This document shows, one piece after another, positions 51 to 36,404 of a DNA stretch of 36,404 nucleotides. The notes beneath the pieces were generated by a model. The model ran no database searches and was not told the DNA's origin. It worked only from the letters and a program-made list of their open reading frames with translations. Source of the DNA: a virus (Duplodnaviria; Heunggongvirae; Uroviricota; Caudoviricetes); the IMG/VR virus record IMGVR_UViG_2850756110_000006; one strand, given 5' to 3'. The translations under genes were made by a program, and so were the position numbers. Positions within the stretch are counted from its first letter, which is position 1; each line of letters starts with the position of its first letter.

Positions 51-84
51 TACAGCTGCATTTATTAAGGTTATCATCCGTTTC

Positions 85-171
85 GCTGAAAAACATAACC
101 CATAAAATGCTAGCTGTACCAGGAACCACCTCCTTAGCCTGTGTAATCTCCCTTACACGGGCTTATTTTTT
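85..171 (+). ncRNA. cyaR: CyaR (RyeE) Hfq-dependent sRNA; its 3' terminator region coincides with the prophage att core
   Basis: Sequence GCTGAAAAACATAACCCATAAAATGCTAGCTGTACCAGGAACCACCTCCTTAGCC... matches recalled CyaR including the CCTCCT anti-SD seed, ending in a hairpin plus T-run. Confidence 0.7.
145..171. repeat. P2 att core copy (27 bp), ogr-proximal prophage junction
   Basis: AATCTCCCTTACACGGGCTTATTTTTT is the reverse complement of the P2 att core; identical copy at 35901-35927. Confidence 0.85.
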
Positions 172-273: not shown

Positions 274-492
274 TTACATCCACATAATTTGCTGCCCTGA
301 CGGCAACGGGTGCGGCCTTACTGCGTGGACTTCTCCCGGCTTCACGATGTATCTCTGTACCGACTCATAAGTGATGAACGTGGCGCTGCAATTCACGTTC
401 TGACACTGGTGATAACGCTCTTTTGTCGTGTCAGTGATATAGCGACTTGTACGCGCATGTGCGGCATGCTGGCATAAAGGACAATGAAACAT
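274..492 (-). CDS. ogr: Late gene transcriptional activator Ogr (zinc finger, 72 aa)
   Basis: MFHCPLCQHAAHARTSRYITDTTKERYHQCQNVNCSATF... matches P2 Ogr; ATG at 492 with GGAAGAGG SD; track ORF is a 5' over-extension. Confidence 0.95.
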   Translation of the reverse strand: MFHCPLCQHAAHARTSRYITDTTKERYHQCQNVNCSATFITYESVQRYIVKPGEVHAVRPHPLPSGQQIMWM

Positions 493-2229: not shown

Positions 2230-4677
2230 TTAACCGTCATGCATCATGCTGGCACGGGCGCGCGCACGTTTATCCCGCTCGTATTTTTCGAGCGCATCCT
2301 GTAACTGGCGGTCAGGCTGTGTCCCCGGCGCAGTACCACCCGTCAGGCTGATGTGATATTCGTTTTTACTCTGGTCCACATAAGAGCGGCCAGCCGGTGC
2401 CGTAACCGGCTGATAAGCCTGATAGCCTGCATAAGAGCTGGTCGCCGGAATATAACCACCGGTGCCATACGTGGCGGCATTAGTCCTTGCGGCGGTCTGG
2501 TCAAGTGTGTCTGACTCTTTGTTAATAACACCGAGTTTTTCCAGTACCCAGTCAATACCACTGCGCAGTTTGTTGAACGCATTAAGCGGCAGCATCAACG
2601 CGTCAGCCAGTGCCTGCCCGAACATGACGCCCGTGTCACGGAAACGGTTCAGGGTGTCCTGTGTGGCTTTAACCGGGGCAATCAGGTTTTTAAACCACTG
2701 CCACGCGGCCTGTAACTTTTCGCCCAGCCAGTCAAACACCGGCTTAAGTGGCGTGAACAGTTCCCCCACCGGCGCAAATGCCGCTTTCAGCCCTTCCACC
2801 ACACCGCCAAAGAATGCGCTGACAGGCTCCCAGTATTTACGGATAAGCAACGCCCCGGCGACAATGGCGGCCACCACGGCCACAACCGGCCAGCTAATCG
2901 CTCCAATGGCGGTCATAACAGCACTGCCAACCGTCGTGAAGATTGCCCCCATTGCGCCTGCTGCCGCGATGATGGCATTGATGCCGGTGATAACCGGCCA
3001 GGCTACGAGGCCAATGGCGCCGATGACACCAATCATTGCCAGTGCACCACCGACAATGATGCCGATGGTTGACGCCAGTGATTTGTTTTTCTGGATCCAG
3101 CCGTCGAGTTTTAACACATACTTTGTGGCCGTCTGCGTGAGCTTACGCAGTGCGCCTTCCTGCTGGTCAAACAGGTCAGTCCCCACCGCCTCATAAGCGG
3201 ACTGAAACTCCTTAAAGTCACCGCCGAGGTTGTCCTGCATGATATTTACCAGCTCTGCGGTCTTTCCGTCTGAGGCTTTAAACGCAGCGGTCAGTTTGTC
3301 CAGCTTTCCGGTTGAGGCGGCAGTCATCAGCACGGCGGCGGCTGAACTGGCCTCCTCCCCGAAAATGGTTTTCATGTATTCAGCCTGCTGGGCAGTACCG
3401 AGCCGGTTTTTCTCAAAACTGGCCTGCATTTCTTTCAGAATGGTAAATACTGGTCGGGTGTTTCCCTTACTGTCTGAGGTTTTCACACCAAGCTCTTTGA
3501 GTGCATCCCATGCTTTTCCCGTCGGTGCCTGCAGGCGGCTTAACACGGCACGGCTTCCCGTTCCCGCCATTGAGCCTGTGATTTTTGCATCATGCAGCGC
3601 CCCGACCATTGCGGCGGTTTCTTCAATGCTGACACCGGCATTTTTTGCCACAGGTGCGGCATAGGTCAGCGCATCGCTCATGCCGTCAAAATCGGCGGCG
3701 GTTTTGTTCATCGTCATGGAGAGAACATCCCCGATATGAGCGACCTTATCGTTTGAAAGCTGAAAGGCGGATTTCATCCCCATCAGCAGGGCGGCGTTTT
3801 CTTCCATCGTGCGACGGTTCGCCAGCGCCATATTCAGCGTGACCGGCGTTGCCGCCTGAATGGCATCAACATCCCCACCGGCTTTCGCAATAATAATCTG
3901 CGCACCAGCTGCATCATCTGCCGAGGCTGCGGTATTGTCGCCGAGCTGACGCGCCTGCTTGCGTAGTGCAGCCATTTCGGCGGAGTCTTTTACCACTCCG
4001 AGCACGGCCTGCAATTCTGAGTTTTTCTGCGCAAACTCATAACCGGGCATCAGCAGCTTAACTCCGGCCATCGTTCCCGCCGCCGCAATCCCCACACCGG
4101 CAGCGCCCACCGAGGCCATATTTCCGGCCAGTTCCTTTCCGGCCTGATAACGCTGTTTTACTGCGTTAAGTTTTGCCTGTTGTGCACTGACACGCGCCAG
4201 CGCGTCGCGCTGACGGTTAAGCTGTGCGGTGGTTTCACTGATACGGTTTTTCAGTCCCTGCTCATCATGTGCAAGATTGCGGGTATTAATTCCCACAGCG
4301 GCCAGTTCCCGCTGCTGGCGTTTAACGGAATCTGTCAGGCGGTTATATTTCGCCTGTAAGTCCTCCGCCGCACGCTTTGCGGATTCCAGCACTTTCGCCT
4401 GAGCACGGGTCGGACGTTCGGTGTTTTTAAACTGTGTGGCAAGGGCTTCGGCCTCCTGCCGTGCCTTTTCAAGTGCATGACCAGTCACGGCGAGCTGTGC
4501 ACTGGTCTTGCGGAATCCCTCAATACGGGATGCCTGACCGTTCAGCTCGCGCAGTGATTTTTGTGTTTCCCGGATATCCCCCGACAGCGATTTGCTCGCT
4601 GTGCGGATGGATTTAAACGGGCGGGATGCCTGGTCAACAGCCCTGAGCAATACCTGTAATTTTACATTGTTACTCAT
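2230..4677 (-). CDS. T: Tail tape measure protein T (815 aa)
   Basis: 815 aa, hydrophobic Gly/Ala-rich central region, P2 gpT position and length; ATG overlaps E' stop. Confidence 0.95.
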   Translation of the reverse strand: MSNNVKLQVLLRAVDQASRPFKSIRTASKSLSGDIRETQKSLRELNGQASRIEGFRKTSAQLAVTGHALEKARQEAEALATQFKNTERPTRAQAKVLESAKRAAEDLQAKYNRLTDSVKRQQRELAAVGINTRNLAHDEQGLKNRISETTAQLNRQRDALARVSAQQAKLNAVKQRYQAGKELAGNMASVGAAGVGIAAAGTMAGVKLLMPGYEFAQKNSELQAVLGVVKDSAEMAALRKQARQLGDNTAASADDAAGAQIIIAKAGGDVDAIQAATPVTLNMALANRRTMEENAALLMGMKSAFQLSNDKVAHIGDVLSMTMNKTAADFDGMSDALTYAAPVAKNAGVSIEETAAMVGALHDAKITGSMAGTGSRAVLSRLQAPTGKAWDALKELGVKTSDSKGNTRPVFTILKEMQASFEKNRLGTAQQAEYMKTIFGEEASSAAAVLMTAASTGKLDKLTAAFKASDGKTAELVNIMQDNLGGDFKEFQSAYEAVGTDLFDQQEGALRKLTQTATKYVLKLDGWIQKNKSLASTIGIIVGGALAMIGVIGAIGLVAWPVITGINAIIAAAGAMGAIFTTVGSAVMTAIGAISWPVVAVVAAIVAGALLIRKYWEPVSAFFGGVVEGLKAAFAPVGELFTPLKPVFDWLGEKLQAAWQWFKNLIAPVKATQDTLNRFRDTGVMFGQALADALMLPLNAFNKLRSGIDWVLEKLGVINKESDTLDQTAARTNAATYGTGGYIPATSSYAGYQAYQPVTAPAGRSYVDQSKNEYHISLTGGTAPGTQPDRQLQDALEKYERDKRARARASMMHDG

Positions 4678-6997: not shown

Positions 6998-7903
6998 CTA
7001 TATTTCCAGACATCTGTTATCACTTAACCCATTACAAGCCCGCTGCCGCAGATATTCCCGTGGCGAGCGATAACCCAGCGCACTATGCGGATGCCATTCG
7101 TTATAATGCTCGAACGCCTCTGCAAGGTTCTTTGCTGCCGTTAACCCGTCTGGTTTGGGCATGATACTGATGTAGTCACGCTTTATCGTTTTCACGAAGC
7201 TCTCTGCTATTCCGTTACTCTCCGGACTCCGCACCGCCGTGTTCTTCGGTTCAAGTCCCAACATCCGGGCGAACTGGCGTGTTTCATTAGCCCGGTAGCA
7301 TGAACCATTATCCGTCAGCCACTCCACTGGAGACGACGGAAGATCGTTGCCGAAGCGGCGTTCCACCGCTCCCAGCATGACGTCCTGTACTGTTTCACTG
7401 TTGAAGCCGCCGGTAGTCACCGCCCAGTGCAGTGCCTCACGATCACAGCAGTCCAGCGCGAACGTGACACGCAGTCTCTCTCCGTTATCACAGCAGAACT
7501 CGAACCCGTCAGAGCACCATCGCTGATTGCTTTCTTTCACGGCCACTCTGCCTGTATGTGCCCGTTTCGATGGCGGTACAGCAGGTTTTCGCTCAAGCAA
7601 CAGCGCATTCTGGCGCATGATCCGGTAAACACGTTTGGCATTGATCGCAGGCATACCATCAAGTTCTGCCTGTCTGCGAAGCAGCGCCCATACCCGACGA
7701 TAACCATACGTGGGCAGCTCTCCGATAACATGGTGTATACGGAGAAGCACATCCGTATCATCAGTGTGACGACTGCGGCGGCCATCCATCCAGTCATCGG
7801 TTCGTCTGAGAATGACGTGCAACTGCGCACGCGACACCCGGAGACAACGGCTGACTAAGCTTACTCCCCATCCCCGGGCAATAAGGGCGCGTGCGCTATC
7901 CAC
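6998..7903 (-). CDS. insD: IS2 transposase OrfB (InsD, 301 aa)
   Basis: [34 protein letters not shown]... matches IS2 InsD; integrase-like core. Confidence 0.9.
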
Positions 7904-8226
7904 TTTTTTGCCCGTCCATATTCAACGGCTTCTTTGAGGAGTTCATTTTCCATCGTTTTCTTGCCGAGCAGGCGCTGGAGTTCTTTAATCTGCTTCATGG
8001 CGGCAGCAAGTTCAGAGGCAGGAACAACCTGTTCTCCGGCGGCCACAGCAGTAAGACTTCCTTCCTGGTATTGCTTACGCCAGAGAAATAACTGGCTGGC
8101 TGCTACACCATGTTGCCGGGCAACGAGGGAGACCGTCATCCCCGGTTCAAAGCTCTGCTGAACAATTGCGATCTTTTCCTGTGTGGTACGCCGTCTGCGT
8201 TTCTCCGGCCCTAAGACATCAATCAT
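7861..8226 (-). CDS. insC: IS2 OrfA (InsC, 121 aa); an A6G slippery site at + coordinates 7904-7910 would fuse it to InsD
   Basis: [41 protein letters not shown]... matches IS2 InsC; CAAAAAAG on the minus strand just upstream of the insD ATG. Confidence 0.9.
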
Positions 8227-8399
8227 CTGTACTCCAATGACTAGTCTAAAAACTAGTATTAAGACTATCACTTATTTAAGTGATACTGGTTGTCTGGAGA
8301 TTCAGGGGGCCAGTCTAACGGGCAATTCGCCCGCCTGTCCTAGTTTGTACTCACTCATTTTCCGACTGACAATTTACATAGCCAAAACGCTATCAAATC

Positions 8400-8433
8400 T
8401 GACAGTCTGCTTTGAGCGAAAAGCAGACTGTCA
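8400..8433. repeat. Perfect palindrome (14-bp stem, 6-nt loop), motif copy A of a three-member family
   Basis: TGACAGTCTGCTTT-GAGCGA-AAAGCAGACTGTCA read directly; no adjacent T-run. Confidence 0.7.
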
Positions 8434-8548
8434 CGCGTTGAAGTTAATTGTATTACTTAGATAAACACTATCATTTTCCTGACGTTAAGTTGTATCTTTG
8501 ATAGGATTAAAAAACGTATAGATAGCTTATGCTACTGAGGGAATAAAA

Positions 8549-9358
8549 ATGACGAAAATTAGTGAACGATGGAAGCACAATGGCATTACTGAAGGTTATT
8601 GCAATATTTGTGGGAAATATGGCTTGCTCACAAAAGATCATGTTCCTCCAAAGTGCGCCATAACCTTAGGCCCTGTTTTGCAGAAAACAGTTAGCGAATT
8701 TTTTGGTATTCAGGAACCAGTTAAACCATTAAATGCTAAAAATGGCTCTTATTTCAGAACCATTTGCAGCCACTGTAACAATAAGGTATTAGGTGGGCTC
8801 GATGTTGCAATTGAAAATGTAACAAAGTCCTTTAAAGAACAGTTAAGTCGATATATGAATGGTATGAATGTATATCCATTCATTAGAATACCTTTTGATA
8901 GCATATCTTTCACTAAGGCTATGATTGGGCACGTGCTATCAGCAACTTCAGTTGAAGATTGTAAAAAAGAACCCGTAGATAGCCCCTTCTATACACCTTT
9001 AAAGGATTATGTTTTGGGTAAAAATTCAAGTTTTGAGGAAACTCATGATATTTACTACTGGTTTTACCCACACAGAATGCACATATCCGCTCAAAGTGTA
9101 GCATTTATGAACGAAGGACATGTGGCATTTATTTGTGCTTTACATTTTTTTCCTATCGGTTTTATTATCACAATGAAAAATGAAGGAACATACCCTGCCC
9201 ACTCTACAAAATTAGAACTTGAAGATAAATTCCTTACATTTAATATGACCTCTATAAATTATGAGTATACGACATTTCCATTTGTAAATCTTAAGGGAAA
9301 CCAAATGTATGCGATAAGCAACGGTCATACTTGTGTGAGTTATCCAATAATTAAGTGA
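8549..9358 (+). CDS. AT-rich accessory protein (269 aa) with N-terminal HNH/His-Me-finger-like motif (CxxC...DHVPP...CSHCNNK) and an unrecognised C-terminal domain
   Basis: Intact ORF with GAGGGA SD 7 nt before the ATG; C18-x2-C21, D30-H31, C-x2-C-N-N-K spacing resembles HNH nucleases; base composition far more AT-rich than flanking phage genes. Confidence 0.75.
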   Translation: MTKISERWKHNGITEGYCNICGKYGLLTKDHVPPKCAITLGPVLQKTVSEFFGIQEPVKPLNAKNGSYFRTICSHCNNKVLGGLDVAIENVTKSFKEQLSRYMNGMNVYPFIRIPFDSISFTKAMIGHVLSATSVEDCKKEPVDSPFYTPLKDYVLGKNSSFEETHDIYYWFYPHRMHISAQSVAFMNEGHVAFICALHFFPIGFIITMKNEGTYPAHSTKLELEDKFLTFNMTSINYEYTTFPFVNLKGNQMYAISNGHTCVSYPIIK

Positions 9359-9412
9359 CGGCTAAATCATACAATCTACGCATGTTCACTTTCTACATAT
9401 ACCATCTATAAT

Positions 9413-9437
9413 GTCCGCTGTTGGCACAAAGCAGACG
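9413..9437. repeat. Imperfect palindrome, motif copy B, between the convergent 269-aa and 425-aa genes
   Basis: GTCCGCTGTT-GGCAC-AAAGCAGACG, related to copies A and C. Confidence 0.55.
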
Positions 9438-9498
9438 CCCACTCTCACGCGAATGCTTTGCCCTTGACTTGCCAACAACCGTATCGCTTGCTCCGCAA

Positions 9499-10776
9499 CT
9501 ATGGTTTTTTATTAGAATCTTCGCCACTAAATAAATTATAATAAATTGATTTTATTAGATATCTGTCAGAATCTATATGGTCAGCACGAGTAGCATGCTC
9601 TAATGTTTCAAATGCTAGGGTTTGTGCGGCTTCAGCAAAAATTCCAGGCCAACCCTTACTCAGCATCGACAGTCCTTTAAGGACCCTTATCTGAATTTCC
9701 CTCATACTGGCACCATCGCGCGCAACAGGTGAGAAAAAGTCTTCAAGTAGATCGTTATTCTGAAGTGGTGCAACATGTACAGAAGGATATTTCACTTCTA
9801 TTTCATCAGATTTATTCTGCGCGTAAGCGGAAAGTATACGTACACCTCTGCCAATGACATCAATGGCGGTTCCAGGATCGTTCACTGCGGGGGAAAGGGC
9901 TCGGCAGGCTATTTCGGCCATGACGCTAAGACAAAATCGGGGGTCCTGAGCAAATGAACGTACATCCGAGACAATAATCGTCTCAAGTAAATCGGTGCTG
10001 ATTGATGACTCCTGGCCCTGACTCAGGTACAAAACTGGCGTGGACGGATGTATGAAACTGCCCGGCTGCGCCACGAGGTATACATGACGGGGATCATTGG
10101 TCAGCAGCTTGCTGAGTTTCACCATATCAACATATTCAACATAGCCAATCTTTTTCGGATAAACTGCAACCGTTCCTTTCGGCTGTTCATTGTTCTCAAG
10201 CCATGGATATCCGCCGAGACAGGGATTTCTTGCTCTCGCAATAAATGTTTCGATGGCCGCCTGTTCTACTTTTGCCGTTGTCTCACCAACCCTCCCCAGA
10301 GAGGTCAAATGCTGTATCCAGCGAAGCAATGTGATGAGGATTAAGGCAATGACAACCAGTGTTACAATGAATAAAATGACTCTCCCCCTTTCTCCATAAG
10401 CTCCCATATTGAGGGCAATAATCCCTACCAGACTGAAGAGAAAAGAACCGATGAAGGTGGCCAGTACATTTTGTGTGGTGACGTCTTCAACAACTAAACG
10501 AGTAGCTCTGGGAGTCACATTAGTAGTGGCTGAACCGTAGGCTGTGACCATGATGCTCAGCGAAAATGTGGTCACTGCCAGCATACTCGATGCCAGTATG
10601 TTCAGAATGTTATCGACTGCTTCCGCACCAACCTTCACGGAAACCGACTCAGGTATCATTGATTTAAAAAGAATTGATAAAAGGGCCGTTATTATTGCGA
10701 CAATTGCGAATAACGTTGCCCTGAACCATAGTTTTTTAAATGTCTGCTTCAGCATCCATTTCCAGCGTGAAATCAT
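9499..10776 (-). CDS. Membrane protein of unknown function (about 425 aa): four predicted N-terminal TM helices plus a roughly 270-aa soluble C-terminal domain; possibly DUF2254-like
   Basis: Intact ORF; start chosen at the second ATG (10776), which has a GAGGGA SD, the track start at 10791 does not; hydrophobic segments ATLFAIVAIITALLSILF, ILASSMLAVTTFSLSIMV, VLATFIGSFLFSLVGIIAL, VILFIVTLVVIALILITLL; family assignment from memory only. Confidence 0.7.
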   Translation of the reverse strand: MISRWKWMLKQTFKKLWFRATLFAIVAIITALLSILFKSMIPESVSVKVGAEAVDNILNILASSMLAVTTFSLSIMVTAYGSATTNVTPRATRLVVEDVTTQNVLATFIGSFLFSLVGIIALNMGAYGERGRVILFIVTLVVIALILITLLRWIQHLTSLGRVGETTAKVEQAAIETFIARARNPCLGGYPWLENNEQPKGTVAVYPKKIGYVEYVDMVKLSKLLTNDPRHVYLVAQPGSFIHPSTPVLYLSQGQESSISTDLLETIIVSDVRSFAQDPRFCLSVMAEIACRALSPAVNDPGTAIDVIGRGVRILSAYAQNKSDEIEVKYPSVHVAPLQNNDLLEDFFSPVARDGASMREIQIRVLKGLSMLSKGWPGIFAEAAQTLAFETLEHATRADHIDSDRYLIKSIYYNLFSGEDSNKKP

Positions 10777-10839
10777 TCTGCATTCCCTCATATTGCAGCC
10801 GGGATAAATAAATGCCGCCTCTGTGGCGGCATGTTGCTG

Positions 10840-12840
10840 TTAACGAACCAGATGCAGGAAGTGCAGGTGTTTTTCGTACTGGTCCAGTATGTCATTAATC
10901 AGCTGTTCCTGATTCCAGCCCATTACATCATAATTTTGGCCGCCCTCTTTGAGATAGACTTCAGCGCGATAATATCGATGTTGTTCACTCTGCTGCTCAT
11001 CATTATCCAGCGCAGCGAGCGCGAAGGTCGGTGAGTTATACCCGCGAAGCCTCACTTCATATATATAATTCAGCTCGTTGCCCAAATCGACTTCAAGGCG
11101 AATACGATCCTCGGCGGCGTCACTGATGTGGCTTATCGTTCCCTGCTTGTTAAGTTCCTCCTGAACCAGCGTCATGGCGGGTTGGATAATGTCGTCCATA
11201 AAACGTTTCACAAGAGAGCGCTTCGGCAAATACGCGATATTGCGTAACCTTCTCTGCCAGGGAATTGGGTTACGTGCAGCCGTAGGAGCAATAGTCGCCA
11301 TGCTAAGGCTTTCACGCTTGGTCAAATCCCGACGCAGGGCTTTTAACAGTCCGTATATGGATATTAATAAGATAACTGAGAAGGGCAATGCACTCGCTAT
11401 CGTTACGGTTTGCAACGCACTCAGCCCCCTGCGATCAGCAGGGCAATAGCAACAACGCCCATGAGCAATGCCCAGAAAATTCGCTGCCAGACGGGCGTGT
11501 TTGCCACCCCACCTGATGCCAGAGTATCCACAACCATTGCCCCGAATCAGCAGACGTTACAAAGAAGACGATGACCATCGCCATTGCAATGAATGACAGC
11601 ACGGAAGAGAACGGGAAATGCTCCAGGAAATTAAACAGGGCAAGCGCAACATCCTGCTGAACGGTATTGGCGAGGTCAGTGGCGCCCTGGTTCATGATGA
11701 GATAGATGGCGCTGTTTCCAAACACCGTCATCCACATGAGCGTAAAGCCGGCGGGAACAAACAACACGCCAGTCACGAACTCACGAATTGTCCTGCCGCG
11801 GGAAACGCGTGCAATGAACATACCTACAAACGGCGACCATGAAAGCCACCATCCCCAGTATAATAATGTCCAGCCCCCAGCCAGTTGCTCGACTTGGGTT
11901 CATACGCGTAAAGGTTGAACGTTTTACTCACCAGTTCCGACAGATAACCACCCGTATTTTCCACAAATGACTTCAGCAGAAGCACAGTGGGACCCAGGCA
12001 CAAGACCAGCGCCAGGAGCAACACCGCCAGGCCCAGATTAAGCTCAGACAGGATGCGTATTCCCTTGTCCAGGCCGGACACCACCGAAATCGTCGCTAAC
12101 CCCGTGATGACCACGATCAAAATGACCTGTACCGTTTCATTGATGGGCACGCCGAAAAGATGGTTCAAACCGGCATTCACCTGCAATACACCGTAACCCA
12201 GCGATGTTGCAACGCCAAAGACAGTGCCTATCACGGCGAAGATATCAACCGCGTGGCCTATAGGCCCGTAAATGCGATCGCCGATAATGGGATAGAGCGC
12301 AGAACGCAGCGTTAAAGGCAGACCGTGACGGTAACTGAAAAAGGCCAGAATCAGCGCCACGATGGCATAAATTGCCCATGCGTGCAGACCCCAGTGGAAG
12401 AACGTCAGGCGCATGGCTTCCTTCGCTGCCGCAACGGTCTCTGGAGTGCCGACAGGTGGCGAAAGATAATGCATCACAGGTTCGGCAACGCCAAAGAACA
12501 TCAGGCCGATCCCCATCCCTGCCGAAAAAAGCATCGCGAACCAGGAGTGGTAGCTGAAATCAGGCTGCGCATGGTCTGGGCCCAGCTTTATATCACCGTA
12601 ACGTGAGAGTCCAAGGAACGTGACGCTCAGTAAAATCAGGGCCACAGCAAGTATGTAGAACCAGCTGGCATTCGTGAAGATTTGTTGCTGAAGTAGTTTA
12701 AAATTTTTGTCGGCGACATCCGGGAATACGGCGGCAAAGGCGACAAGAAGGAAAATTAGCAAAGCAGATGTAAAGAATACCGCTTTGTTAACCTGGCTTG
12801 TAGACTTCTTTGGGGTTGTATCATTTTCACTCATAATCAT
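10840..12840 (-). pseudogene. BCCT-family (BetT-like) betaine/choline transporter gene broken by at least three frameshifts
   Basis: Fragments 11824-12840, 11435-11821 and 10840-11415 carry consecutive BCCT segments, including [32 protein letters not shown] recovered only by switching frame near 11880; further shifts near 11510 and 11425. Confidence 0.8.
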
Positions 12841-13686: not shown

Positions 13687-15777
13687 TTACACCTGTGCGA
13701 CGTTATACCATGTGCCATTAATGTATTTTTGTATTGGTCTGAATACTGCCGGATCATCGCCATCAACTTCGCCGACAATGCCAAGCCCTGTAATTACATG
13801 GCCTGATTTCTCATACATCACGCCTTTTTGCATGGTCTGAACAACACGCGTACCCAGGCGAACATCTTTCACATAGCGGGAATCAAAATTTCCGTAATCT
13901 GATGGGTTAACACGTCCAGTAACACTCAGGCCATGCCCCATTGACACTCCGCCATTGGCGTTATTGATAGTCAGCGGTCTTAAACCGTTCCATGTTCCAA
14001 ATTTATCGCCAGAGGCCGTCAGCATTAAATATGTGCTGCCGCCATCATTCCTGATAAAGAATCCATAATTGCCATAAGCAATGCGCAGACCATTAGCACT
14101 GAGCGATGTAATTTCACCTCTTGAACGAAGACCATAAGCAGAGCTGAGTGATAATTCTTCCTGAGCATCAGTATTACCTGTCGCCCAGCGAATTACCCCG
14201 CCCTGTACTGTTTCATGCCAGATAGTGTCTCCTTCTCCACCACGAAACTTTCTGAGATATTTTTTGCCGCCTCTGGTGCCGGAACATAAGGCCGTAGACA
14301 TATAGGCATTCTGGCTTCCACTATCCTGATTAATAGTTCCAGACATAGAATCGCCGTAACGGTTCCAGTCACGCCGCCAGCCAGGAGCATAGTTGTCCCC
14401 GTGGTTAATATAAGTAAATTGCGCGCTTGTAGCGCCCCCACCGCTTGATGTTGTTGGTGTGGTAATACGAATAGTCATTGCAGACTTTATGCCCATTACC
14501 TCAATAACAGCGCCAGCAAGATGAATATTGCCACAGCCAGTATCCGTAATGATTTTGTTATTTGCATATGACCAGGAGCCTTTGCACATCCAGTACGGAT
14601 GATTAAATGCACCACGGGAATCCAGCCATTCAATAAACTGAGCGGTTGTCCAGTTTCCGGCTTCAGTGCTCAAAGCGCCGCTATAAGCACGACAGGCACC
14701 GATATTTTTCGTGAAGGTATCCTTTCCCGGAATATCCGCACCGTTCTGATCTTTCTGAAGACGTTTTTCAGCATTGTCATAGGCAGACTTCACCGCCTTT
14801 GGCGTTGCAGCCTGCGTTTCAGAATCACTGTTGGTGGCGCTACTGAGCTGGACAAGACCTTTTCGCGCCGTGGTGGCATCCTGTGCAGTGTATTTCCCGT
14901 TAGCAAGGTCATATGCTGTCTTAACCGCCTTTGGCGTTGCCGCAAGCGTTTCAGAATCGCTGTTGGTGGCGCTACTGAGCTGAACAAGGCCTTTTCGCGC
15001 TGTTGTGGCATCCTGTGCAGTGTATTTCCCGTTAGCAAGGTCATATGCTGCCTTTACCGCTTTCGGCGTTGCGGCGAGCGTTTCAGACGTGCTGTTAGTC
15101 GCACTACTGAGCTGAACAAGGCCTTTTCGCGCGGTGGTAGCGTCCTGTGCGGTATATTTCCCGTTAGCAAGGTCATATGCGGCCTTAACCGCTTTCGGAG
15201 TTGCAGCCAGTGTTTCAGACGTGCTGTTGGTCGCACTGCTTAACTGAGTAAAACCTTTTGCGGTCAGCGAGGCGTCAGGGTGACGTCGTGACTGTTCATG
15301 TTCTGCAATTTTGTCATCAACGTAATCCTGCGTTGCCATCACCGTTGTGGTGTCAATGGTCAGCTCCACTGAGGCCACACTGCTGACGATGATGACCATG
15401 CGGCAGGTCTGCGAACGCCCTGAGCCTTCGGCAAGGGCTGGCTTATAACTTTCGGCCATGTTCGCCACGGCAATTAGCGTTCCCGCATCATCGTACAGGC
15501 CAAGTTCACGCATCCAGAAACCGCCCACCTCCGGCGGAATAACCAGCTCTGCGATAATATAATTACTGTTTCGTTTGTCCTGGCTGATTTTGTTCAGCGC
15601 ATGTCGCCAGACTTCATGGATAAGCCCGGTCTGTCCGGCATCCGGGACAGGCAATTTACCACCGCCATCCCCGACGGCCATCGTGGTAATGTTGACCTTC
15701 CGCCCTCCCGGTGCGGTTGCCGCTGCCAGCTTTGCTGCACCGGCAGTGGTGATAACGGTTTTGAATTTTGTGCTCAT
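13687..15777 (-). CDS. H: Tail fibre protein H (696 aa) with internal tandem repeats and a variable C-terminal receptor-binding region
   Basis: Conserved P2 H N-terminus MSTKFKTVITTAGAAKLAAA...; about four 44-aa repeats (QLSSATNSxSETLAATPKAVKAAYDLANGKYTAQDATTARKGLV). Confidence 0.9.
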   Translation of the reverse strand: MSTKFKTVITTAGAAKLAAATAPGGRKVNITTMAVGDGGGKLPVPDAGQTGLIHEVWRHALNKISQDKRNSNYIIAELVIPPEVGGFWMRELGLYDDAGTLIAVANMAESYKPALAEGSGRSQTCRMVIIVSSVASVELTIDTTTVMATQDYVDDKIAEHEQSRRHPDASLTAKGFTQLSSATNSTSETLAATPKAVKAAYDLANGKYTAQDATTARKGLVQLSSATNSTSETLAATPKAVKAAYDLANGKYTAQDATTARKGLVQLSSATNSDSETLAATPKAVKTAYDLANGKYTAQDATTARKGLVQLSSATNSDSETQAATPKAVKSAYDNAEKRLQKDQNGADIPGKDTFTKNIGACRAYSGALSTEAGNWTTAQFIEWLDSRGAFNHPYWMCKGSWSYANNKIITDTGCGNIHLAGAVIEVMGIKSAMTIRITTPTTSSGGGATSAQFTYINHGDNYAPGWRRDWNRYGDSMSGTINQDSGSQNAYMSTALCSGTRGGKKYLRKFRGGEGDTIWHETVQGGVIRWATGNTDAQEELSLSSAYGLRSRGEITSLSANGLRIAYGNYGFFIRNDGGSTYLMLTASGDKFGTWNGLRPLTINNANGGVSMGHGLSVTGRVNPSDYGNFDSRYVKDVRLGTRVVQTMQKGVMYEKSGHVITGLGIVGEVDGDDPAVFRPIQKYINGTWYNVAQV
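14773..15261. repeat. Tandem 132-bp coding repeats (about 3.7 copies) inside H; coordinates approximate
   Basis: 44-aa period in the H protein; repetitive shadow ORFs on other frames (14599-15243, 14790-15044). Confidence 0.8.
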
Positions 15778-29045: not shown

Positions 29046-29974
29046 TCAAACCAGGCTTTTGCCTTGCTTCATTTTTTTAGATGAGTCTAAAAATTTGAAA
29101 TTATCATTAGATGAAAATATTCTTTCTGCGGTATGCCGAATGACTGAAGTATTGAAGACCGCAGCCTGCTCCTCATTACAACTGAATACACCCTCATGAC
29201 CATCAAACTCGCCCGCCAAAAGAAGGTTTTTTGATACTGGGAACAAAACTAAAGTGTCTTTTACACCAAACCCGGGGAATAAGGGCCTCGTGCTAATTCA
29301 GGATTAGTCCACATTAAGCAAACTGGGTTATCTGAAGTTATAAATGACCCTTGCCCATCAGATATGGTCATAAGTGACCAGTTGCGTTGATGCAACAACT
29401 TGGTGATAACAGGTACACATTTCATTTCCATATCTATCATGAACTCTCTGATTACATTGATTTCGAAATTATCCCCATCCACAAAATTTTTAATTTTTTC
29501 GTAAGCGAGATCATATGGCAAAGACTCACCCATTTCTTTCTCATAAGCTAATTTGCAATCGTCCCAACGCTCAGCCGAACTAACTGAGGATTTCATGATA
29601 AACTTTGCTATTTGTTTCAATGGAGATGATAAATGTTCTCGCTGAGCAGGCGTACGTATTGCCAATAAGGAAATAAACTCCAGAATAACATCTTTGGTTT
29701 CGCCTGAAAACTCGCCCCCTCCTCAAGTTTTCTTAAATGAGTAGCGACACTGCCTTCAAACTCTGCAAGAGAACTCTCGAGATAGTTTGGGTCAACTCCA
29801 TCCAATTCTAATCGGTTGAAATCTCTAACCCCCCCCGACATTGCGAGTATTACTCTCAAAGGTTTTGCGCTCCTTTAAATCTATTACAGTTAATTTTGAT
29901 TTTTTCCCCCCATTACTTGTAAACCCTTTCAAATAACATTGGGATAAAAAATGATGATGCCTTGCAACACTCAT
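29046..29974 (-). pseudogene. AT-rich DUF4238-like gene at the tin/old position, split into four frame-shifted fragments
   Basis: N-terminus MSVARHHHFLSQCYLKGFTS resembles the DUF4238 HxxPQFYLKxF motif (from memory); frame breaks at a G8/C8 run (29829-29836), near 29617-29665 and near 29246-29261. Confidence 0.65.
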
Positions 29975-34807: not shown

Positions 34808-35821
34808 ATGGCAATCAAAAAACTCGATGATGGTCGATATGAAGTGGACATCCGCCCTACTGGACGTAACGGAAAACGCATCCGTAGGAAGTTTGATAAG
34901 AAAAGCGAAGCTGTCGCTTTCGAAAAATACACGTTGTACAACCACCACAATAAAGAATGGCTATCAAAACCAACAGACAAACGACGTCTGTCGGAACTGA
35001 CACAGATCTGGTGGGATTTAAAGGGTAAACACGAAGAGCATGGGAAATCTAATCTTGGAAAAATTGAAATCTTCACAAAAATAACGAATGACCCATGCGC
35101 ATTTCAAATCACGAAATCCCTTATCAGCCAGTACTGCGCCACCCGAAGAAGTCAGGGTATTAAACCTTCGAGTATCAATCGTGATTTAACATGTATTAGC
35201 GGCATGTTTACAGCCCTGATTGAAGCGGAGTTATTCTTTGGTGAGCACCCTATCAGAGGGACAAAGAGGCTTAAGGAGGAAAAACCAGAAACAGGCTATC
35301 TCACACAGGAAGAAATTGCCTTACTGCTTGCAGCACTTGACGGCGACAATAAAAAGATTGCGATTCTTTGCCTGAGTACAGGAGCACGTTGGGGAGAAGC
35401 AGCTCGTTTGAAAGCAGAAAATATCATCCATAACCGCGTCACGTTTGTTAAAACGAAAACAAACAAACCACGCACCGTCCCGATCTCAGAGGCTGTTGCC
35501 AAAATGATCGCGGATAACAAACGAGGTTTTTTATTCCCTGATGCTGATTACCCTCGCTTCAGACGAACAATGAAAGCAATAAAACCGGATTTGCCAACGG
35601 GGCAAGCCACACATGCACTAAGGCACAGCTTTGCCACTCATTTCATGATTAATGGAGGAAGTATTATCACGCTACAACGGATACTAGGTCACACGCGGAT
35701 TGAGCAAACTATGGTTTACGCTCATTTTGCGCCAGAGTACCTTCAGGACGCCATTTCTCTTAATCCGCTAAGAGGTGGTACTGAGGCCGAGAGTGTCCAC
35801 ACAGTGTCCACAGTAGAGTAA
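34808..35821 (+). CDS. int: Tyrosine integrase (337 aa)
   Basis: Matches P2 Int; catalytic signature ...HALRHSFATH...LGHTRIEQTMVYAH. Confidence 0.95.
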   Translation: MAIKKLDDGRYEVDIRPTGRNGKRIRRKFDKKSEAVAFEKYTLYNHHNKEWLSKPTDKRRLSELTQIWWDLKGKHEEHGKSNLGKIEIFTKITNDPCAFQITKSLISQYCATRRSQGIKPSSINRDLTCISGMFTALIEAELFFGEHPIRGTKRLKEEKPETGYLTQEEIALLLAALDGDNKKIAILCLSTGARWGEAARLKAENIIHNRVTFVKTKTNKPRTVPISEAVAKMIADNKRGFLFPDADYPRFRRTMKAIKPDLPTGQATHALRHSFATHFMINGGSIITLQRILGHTRIEQTMVYAHFAPEYLQDAISLNPLRGGTEAESVHTVSTVE

Positions 35822-35900
35822 CGTTTAAGGGCTTTCAGTGGTAATTTATGCCGCTCAAACCCGCATTGTACCGTTGAAAGCCCCTACTGGTGACACCCTA

Positions 35901-35927
35901 AATCTCCCTTACACGGGCTTATTTTTT
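35901..35927. repeat. P2 att core copy (27 bp), int-proximal prophage junction
   Basis: Exact direct repeat of 145-171. Confidence 0.85.
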
Positions 35928-36086
35928 TATGCATAAGCCCTATCTCTGGTAACCGTCTTCCATTGACCACATCGATAGAATCCTCCTTCATAGCACGATG
36001 CCTTTCACTTATCGGCATCGTGCTCCCACAGGTTCCGGCTACGCACAGCCAGAACGCGCATATTTGACGCTTACCAAAAAATATTC

Positions 36087-36404
36087 TCACTCTCCACATT
36101 TGAATGTCAGACGAGCGACACCATGTAATCCTACACCTTCTGTCTTCAGCTCAACTATTTGCATTTTTTTGCCCTGAGTAACACAGAAATGAGTTGCATC
36201 ATTTTTTACTATATTTTCTGCACCAGATATTCTACCCCTGGCTAAAGAAGCTTCGGCTTCGGTGTAGTATTGGTTATCGAGTTTACGCTGAATATTACTT
36301 TTATATGCAAGACCAAATTTACCGATACTTGTCTCATCATTATGCACAGCACAACCAGACATAATAAAAATACTAATTAATGATATAGCAGCTATCTTTT
36401 TCAT
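36087..36404 (-). CDS. Host lipoprotein (105 aa); position and length are consistent with E. coli yegR, not sequence-verified
   Basis: Signal peptide with lipobox MKKIAAISLISIFIMSGC; ATG is the last three bases of the window; lies outside the att repeat. Confidence 0.75.
   Translation of the reverse strand: MKKIAAISLISIFIMSGCAVHNDETSIGKFGLAYKSNIQRKLDNQYYTEAEASLARGRISGAENIVKNDATHFCVTQGKKMQIVELKTEGVGLHGVARLTFKCGE

Follow-up and report, generated by a model that had tools for sequence, protein, structure and literature searches.

Our analysis indicates, with a probability of roughly 93%, that a P2-family prophage is integrated at the 3′ end of the small RNA gene cyaR in the 36,404-nt stretch of viral DNA studied here (IMG/VR record IMGVR_UViG_2850756110_000006, hereafter the window), and that recombination in a core shared by phage and host rebuilds the CyaR terminator. 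A tyrosine integrase would have inserted the complete prophage at the 3′ end of this CRP-dependent sRNA gene through a 27-bp core common to attP and attB, which extends over the loop, 3′ arm and U-tract of the terminator. With recombination inside the core, the cyaR promoter, body and 5′ stem arm would stay host DNA, and the host 5′ arm would be joined to a phage-borne 3′ arm and U-tract, giving a full-length terminator with its Hfq-binding tail at attL. The displaced host copy of the core would come to lie at attR, 35.7 kb away beside yegR, where it would lack a 5′ arm and form no terminator.

The 27-bp sequence AATCTCCCTTACACGGGCTTATTTTTT is present in exactly two copies, the attL core (145–171) and the attR core (35901–35927), with 100% identity that goes no further in either direction; by chance, 3.9e-8 exact 27-mer repeat pairs would be expected in the window. 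The P2 GenBank record annotates attP as exactly the same 27 bp, with the Int P′ arm and Cox sites on one side and IHF, the Int P arm, the ogr terminator and ogr on the other. Mapped from this annotation, the phage P arm lies at 170–234 (IHF site at about 170–203, Int arm-type sites at about 207–234) and differs from that of P2 by one substitution and one A indel, and the P′ arm Int site and Cox sites lie at 35787–35884 with 100% identity to P2. On the int side, the 100% identity to P2 stops exactly at 35927, and on the left, most of the 5,424 Escherichia coli genomes with cyaR cease to match the window at 171/172. Empty yegQ-cyaR-yegR sites with a single core exist, for example in strain SF-166, and RM14721 matches the attB that can be reconstructed from the window at 100% identity. 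A five-way alignment of attL, the empty attB of SF-166, the K-12-type remnant, P2 attP and attR displays the reciprocal relation of integrative recombination. The locus combines features of a P2-type attachment site, namely a core repeat at both ends, an adjacent tyrosine integrase with arm-type, IHF and Cox sites, and an unoccupied attB.

The host flank of attB at 35928–35985, which is also found in empty sites, contains a decayed P2-like P arm. This flank (compare 172–239; locus L002, 2673–2730) reads TATGCATAAGCCC..TATCTCTGGTAACCGTCTTCCATTGACCACATCGA, and its positions 35941–35980 are 75% identical to 200–239; one arm-type Int repeat (TGACCACA) is intact and the IHF region is missing. Because the decayed arm is present even in sites classed as empty, the attB of today looks like a scar left by a P2-like insertion of much greater age.

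The prophage body runs from ogr to int over about 35.7 kb, and its limits for annotation are 172–35900, between the two 27-bp cores. The gene order in the ORF map (ogr-D ... tail ... head ... A ... cox-C-int) is collinear with P2, and the prophage is approximately 96% identical to P2, pro147, WPhi and others over 66–85% of its length; this P2 gene order with high nucleotide identity places it in Peduovirus. The first prophage gene beside cyaR is that of the late-gene activator ogr (274–492, minus strand; identified from the P2 annotation and recorded as ogrK in E. coli entries), and at the opposite end lies the tyrosine integrase gene int (34808–35821, plus strand), with Pfam Int_N and Phage_integrase domains and a 3′ end 100% identical to P2 int. 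Judging from the ORF map, the essential prophage genes look intact, with an IS3 insertion and split cargo genes confined to variable regions.

Approximately 6 kb of cargo (6998–12840) separates FI (tail sheath) from G (tail-fibre assembly). It comprises an IS3-family element (orfA 7861–8271, orfB 6998–7903), a 269-aa ORF at 8549–9358, a DUF2254 membrane protein gene at 9499–10791, one 191-aa ORF and a BCCT-family transporter gene split into 11435–11821 and 11824–12840, which is probably a pseudogene. Between the portal gene Q and the replication gene A, the position of the P2 old/tin variable region, a DUF4238 gene (29261–29859) is split between two overlapping ORFs, apparently by a frameshift. 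PADLOC, applied to the cargo ORFs, returned only a split DUF4238 candidate, which matches the candidate defence family 'DUF4238-Pers' (1e-92). Three tandem 132-bp units (80–88% identical) were also observed at 14770–15259 within a 696-aa tail-fibre gene (13687–15777, minus strand).

The integration target is identified as cyaR (ryeE), an 87-nt sRNA gene at 85–171 on the plus strand, by its Rfam family, its fold and its position directly 3′ of yegQ. CyaR_RyeE (RF00112) is the sole Rfam match in the window, at 83–168 on the plus strand, with 100.7 bits against a gathering threshold of 47 (E-value 3.5e-19), and the match spans the full model (positions 1–85 of 85) with no truncation. A scan of the whole window for tRNA and tmRNA genes detected none, so the insertion site is not of the tRNA type. 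The RNA encoded at 85–171 (GCUGAAAAAC...GGGCUUAUUUUUU) is predicted to fold into the two expected hairpins and a U-tail, with a minimum free energy of −19.8 kcal/mol (z = −3.0), and displays ACCACC in the loop of the short second hairpin. Alignment to SF-166 and to a K-12-like strain places window position 1 at the base after the yegQ stop codon, so that cyaR here occupies its conserved genomic position 3′ of yegQ, and the host gene at the far side of the site is yegR (36087–36404, minus strand).

The upstream region presents sequence elements expected of a CRP-activated promoter. CRP-dependent promoters of this kind have a CRP site near −41.5 and a −10 box, and lack a −35 element. A CRP-like site (TTAGAA-N4-GATCACA, TTAGAAACCGATCACA) lies at 35–50 on the plus strand, fitting the CRP consensus TGTGA-N6-TCACA at 8 of 10 specified positions, and its centre falls at about −42.5 relative to G85, a class II position. 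The candidate −10 box TATCAT (72–77, plus strand) lies 7 nt upstream of G85, and a scan of the cyaR promoter for a sigma-70 −35/−10 pair detected none, as expected for an activator-dependent promoter. In an alignment of loci from 118 Enterobacterales species, both CRP half-sites (35–40 and 44–50) are at least 90% conserved with variable spacers, as are T72, A73, A76 and T77 of the −10 box. None of the promoter positions counted as conserved was fixed by the pattern that collected the loci; conservation at 121–135, 137–139 and 145–154 was imposed by that search pattern and was discounted as evidence. These results agree with the proposal of the first-pass annotation that the cyaR promoter, with a CRP-like site, lies intact at 35–84, and CRP control of CyaR is stated in published work (PMC3333887).

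The geometry of the core within the CyaR intrinsic terminator (136–171, plus strand) determines what the phage can contribute. The terminator consists of an 11-bp stem (136–146/153–163), a loop (147–152) and the tail TATTTTTT, and a simple terminator scan recovered the same hairpin at 136–163 followed by UAUUUUUU. The core comprises the last 2 nt of the 5′ arm (145–146), the loop, the entire 3′ arm and the T-tract, while positions 136–144 of the 5′ arm lie outside it and are host-only, so the phage lacks a full terminator of its own. In agreement with this, the terminator fold has −15.9 kcal/mol at attL and only −3.5 kcal/mol at attR or attP, where the int-side flank precedes the core. The phage thus carries no complete terminator, and one forms only once the host 5′ arm joins the core. 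The first-pass annotation had described a prophage integrated in the 3′ end of cyaR, with an att core that overlaps the terminator hairpin and T-tract and supplies the sRNA terminator. The Rfam match and the pair of cores bracketing the 35.7-kb P2-family prophage bear out the integration, the overlap of 145–171 with the hairpin and tail is as described, and alignment to unlysogenised E. coli, in which the empty site of SF-166 matches, puts the att repeat inside the sRNA gene. The supply of the terminator has to be narrowed to the 3′ arm and U-tract, since 136–144 is host-only and the core without it folds at just −3.5 kcal/mol.

The attL and attR cores of the window are identical, and the phage-derived bases are not readable directly from them. 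Variants were therefore sought in cyaR loci, with one genome per species, and in att-core loci from IMG/VR. Core alleles differ at positions 13 and 15, being ACACGGGC (the E. coli/P2 type), ACGCAGGC or ACGCGGGC, and three lysogens combine them informatively. The first is the Escherichia albertii lysogen IMGVR_UViG_2713896897_000015, whose flanks are 98.6–98.9% identical to an E. albertii reference in which cyaR carries ACGCAGGC and is followed by a remnant; in the lysogen, the P2 allele ACACGGGC and a P2 arm adjoin cyaR, and the host allele ACGCAGGC is found at attR beside the resident remnant. The second is the E. coli type strain ATCC 11775 (NZ_CP033092.2), which has ACGCAGGC at attL and the native ACACGGGC at attR, 35.8 kb apart (reverse strand, positions 453 and 36276 of the extracted locus); the hybrid attL of this strain recurs at ≥99% identity in 24 E. 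coli genomes. In the third, an Enterobacter lysogen, the host 5′ arm GCCUGCGU is joined to a P2 3′ arm, leaving a C.A mismatch. Stem mismatch as such was rejected as weak proof of phage origin, as at least one unpaired position, mostly in the outermost pair, also occurs in 13 of 111 native sites that lack a P2 arm.

The most economical reading of all three lysogens is that the bases at positions 13 and 15 stay linked to the flank on their right. By parsimony across these other lysogens, the crossover probably lies within core positions 1–12 (145–156 in the window), to the left of position 13, and we infer that it had the same position in the window itself. The phage contributes core sequence only rightward of the crossover, so window positions 157 onward would be phage-derived. 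In the natural variant lysogens, sequence comparison identifies the CyaR 3′ arm and U-tract as evidently phage-derived, and the suggestion that integration preserves the 3′ end of the sRNA with phage sequence finds its support in the ATCC 11775, E. albertii and Enterobacter cases rather than in the identical cores of the window.

A first alternative is that integration is not neutral, the phage-borne 3′ end altering how efficiently CyaR terminates, how it binds Hfq or how much transcription continues into the prophage, and we consider this unlikely. Integration leaves the RNA sequence the same as far as the U-run. At attL the T-run is six residues followed by A (166–172), compared with seven at attR (35922–35929); the attB reconstructed from the window consequently has T7, lysogeny shortens the encoded CyaR U-tail by one, and the RNA may not end at exactly the same sequence in lysogenised and unlysogenised cells. 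However, T6 and T7 alleles both occur in unoccupied sites and T6 is common there, for example in SF-166 and the K-12 type, so T6 at attL falls within normal CyaR variation. As the CyaR terminator was leaky in a reporter, with 41% read-through, and U-tails of at least 7 favour Hfq binding (PMC9765468), a small quantitative effect of T6 versus T7 on CyaR is conceivable and may exist. Integration also changes the downstream context and can give other hosts a different or mismatched 3′ arm, as in the Enterobacter lysogen, where the chimeric hairpin has −12.0 kcal/mol compared with −17.4 kcal/mol for the native one; in E. coli, by contrast, the stems are equally stable with either 3′-arm allele (−15.9 and −16.2 kcal/mol). 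In the lysogen, transcripts that escape termination would run into the P arm and reach the ogr/F-operon terminator hairpin at 241–262, known from the P2 annotation and recovered by the terminator scan. This hairpin is terminator-like on the plus strand too (AAGCCCCTCGACTGAGGGGCTT followed by CCTGTTTCTA) and could halt cyaR transcripts before they run antisense into ogr. The reading we prefer is still that recombination rebuilds the terminator, with CyaR probably made normally in this lysogen.

A crossover at the far right of the core or beyond would leave the attL terminator entirely host-derived, with the phage adding nothing functional to the sRNA. The window, with its identical cores, holds nothing that contradicts such a crossover, and the variant lysogens make it highly improbable. 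An opening for it is ATCC 11775, whose attL ACGCAGGC could be a host allele: three E. coli genomes carry ACGCAGGC, a non-E. coli 3′-arm allele, at an empty site, and free phages in INPHARED with the same P arm carry ACACGGGC, with no exact match in that database to a free phage with a ACGCAGGC attP allele (best 97.6%). The few empty-site genomes leave the host-allele explanation some room, but it is disfavoured by the yegQ-side (cyaR-side) flank of ATCC 11775, which shows 100% identity to the flank in SF-166, a strain with ACACGGGC at its empty site; the empty-site ACGCAGGC genomes belong to another lineage that differs from the ATCC 11775 flank at approximately 30 of 1,460 nt. The empty-site ACGCAGGC genomes include 510016 and LH13-b (about 3001–3141 of the extracted loci), and their allele may be the footprint of a past phage visit or of recombination with other Escherichia. 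A far-right crossover would further require, in the E. albertii lysogen, a host allele and a phage allele that have both escaped sampling, and in Enterobacter a natively mismatched host allele unseen in that genus.

That the repeat is coincidental, or that cyaR is phage cargo rather than a targeted host gene, has next to no probability: adjacency itself and nothing more speaks for it, and it is already refuted by the chance expectation given above for the repeat, by the distribution of cyaR and by P2, which carries only the 27-bp core. We found cyaR in 5,424 of 5,426 complete E. coli genomes, about 4,200 of which have an uninterrupted site, and in the 120 Enterobacterales species genomes returned by the pattern scan, and it adjoins yegQ in every genus or species checked (E. 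coli, E. albertii and Enterobacter). The 5,426 genomes include 808 with the int-attR-yegR junction, corresponding to a prophage at this site in approximately 15%, and 1,123 with ogr beside cyaR, a count that includes the K-12-type ogrK-D′ remnant. Outside E. coli, a P2-like P arm directly follows cyaR in Citrobacter youngae, E. albertii, one Enterobacter species, a Buttiauxella MAG and others; tblastn recovered Ogr/D homologues in only three of these species loci, because the 8-kb loci are often incomplete. Among the records collected, NZ_CP083887.1 ('plasmid unnamed3' of E. coli NDM2, 43,140 bp, labelled circular) carries yegI′, IS1, a frameshifted yegQ, cyaR and a P2-like prophage, and is probably a mis-assembled or mis-circularised chromosomal segment and not a real plasmid.

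The attachment site in the window is presumably locI, the preferred attB of P2. The 27-nt core, locI and the K-12 remnant were reportedly defined by Yu et al. in 1989 and by Barreiro & Haggard-Ljungquist in 1992. The system shares with P2 attP and E. coli attB the 27-bp core, the Int/IHF/Cox layout, the int 3′ end and the placement of ogr at cyaR and int at yegR, and the prophage differs from P2 in being a mosaic relative of 35.7 kb, compared with 33.6 kb, with other cargo in the variable regions. The K-12 ogrK-D′ remnant and the P2-type prophages of E. coli W and B show the same junction of cyaR, core, P arm and ogr; K-12 keeps only ogr and a D fragment, whereas the prophage described here is complete, with int and attR. 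Table 2 of the E. coli W genome paper (PMC3032704) places Wphi2 (P2 type), the K-12 ogr-D′ element and P2*B at the insertion site 'cyaR RNA', and Bobay et al. (PMC3603311) state that ryeE in E. coli was previously known as a phage target, citing Wassarman 2001. This is the classical preferred P2 attachment site, already described, and the finding is correct but ordinary. Our literature search returned nothing explicit on the overlap between the att core and the CyaR terminator, and a 2026 NAR paper on P2/P4 hotspots leaves cyaR unmentioned.

Integration into the 3′ ends of tRNA, tmRNA and sRNA genes is known from phage 186 (tRNA-Ile), Fels-2/SopEPhi (ssrA), P2-like elements at rybB and the sdsR/ryeB locus (PMC3448106, PMC3603311, PMC3333887). 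As in those cases, the phage duplicates the 3′ portion of a structured RNA gene, and the gene remains intact upon insertion. At cyaR, in contrast to tRNA-like targets, the duplicated part belongs to the intrinsic terminator of an Hfq-dependent sRNA and amounts to only 27 bp, and the 5′ stem arm is not phage-borne, so that arm mismatches are possible in heterologous hosts. The inferred position of the crossover, to one side of the core, and the occasional natural chimeric terminators are the only mildly new points, and both are minor additions. They suggest minor follow-ups on a crossover apparently located in the loop-side half of the core, on the tolerance of mismatch at positions 13 and 15, and on chimeric CyaR terminators in heterologous lysogens.

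Rather speculatively, and with more doubt than conviction, P2-family phages might be viewed as carriers of alternative CyaR 3′-end alleles, such that prophage gain and loss would tune termination and Hfq loading. If so, lysogeny would give a conserved regulatory RNA a replacement 3′ stem arm and U-tail, usually silently and occasionally with a change in stem stability (in Enterobacter, −12.0 versus −17.4 kcal/mol) or in the U-tail (7 to 6), and the rare empty-site ACGCAGGC alleles of E. coli would be footprints of past phage visits. More securely, the arrangement at this locus is a textbook case of phages that target the 3′ ends of structured RNA genes and bring a replacement copy with them, and rebuilding of the terminator from a host 5′ arm and a phage-borne 3′ arm would explain why the prophage spares a conserved, CRP-controlled sRNA.
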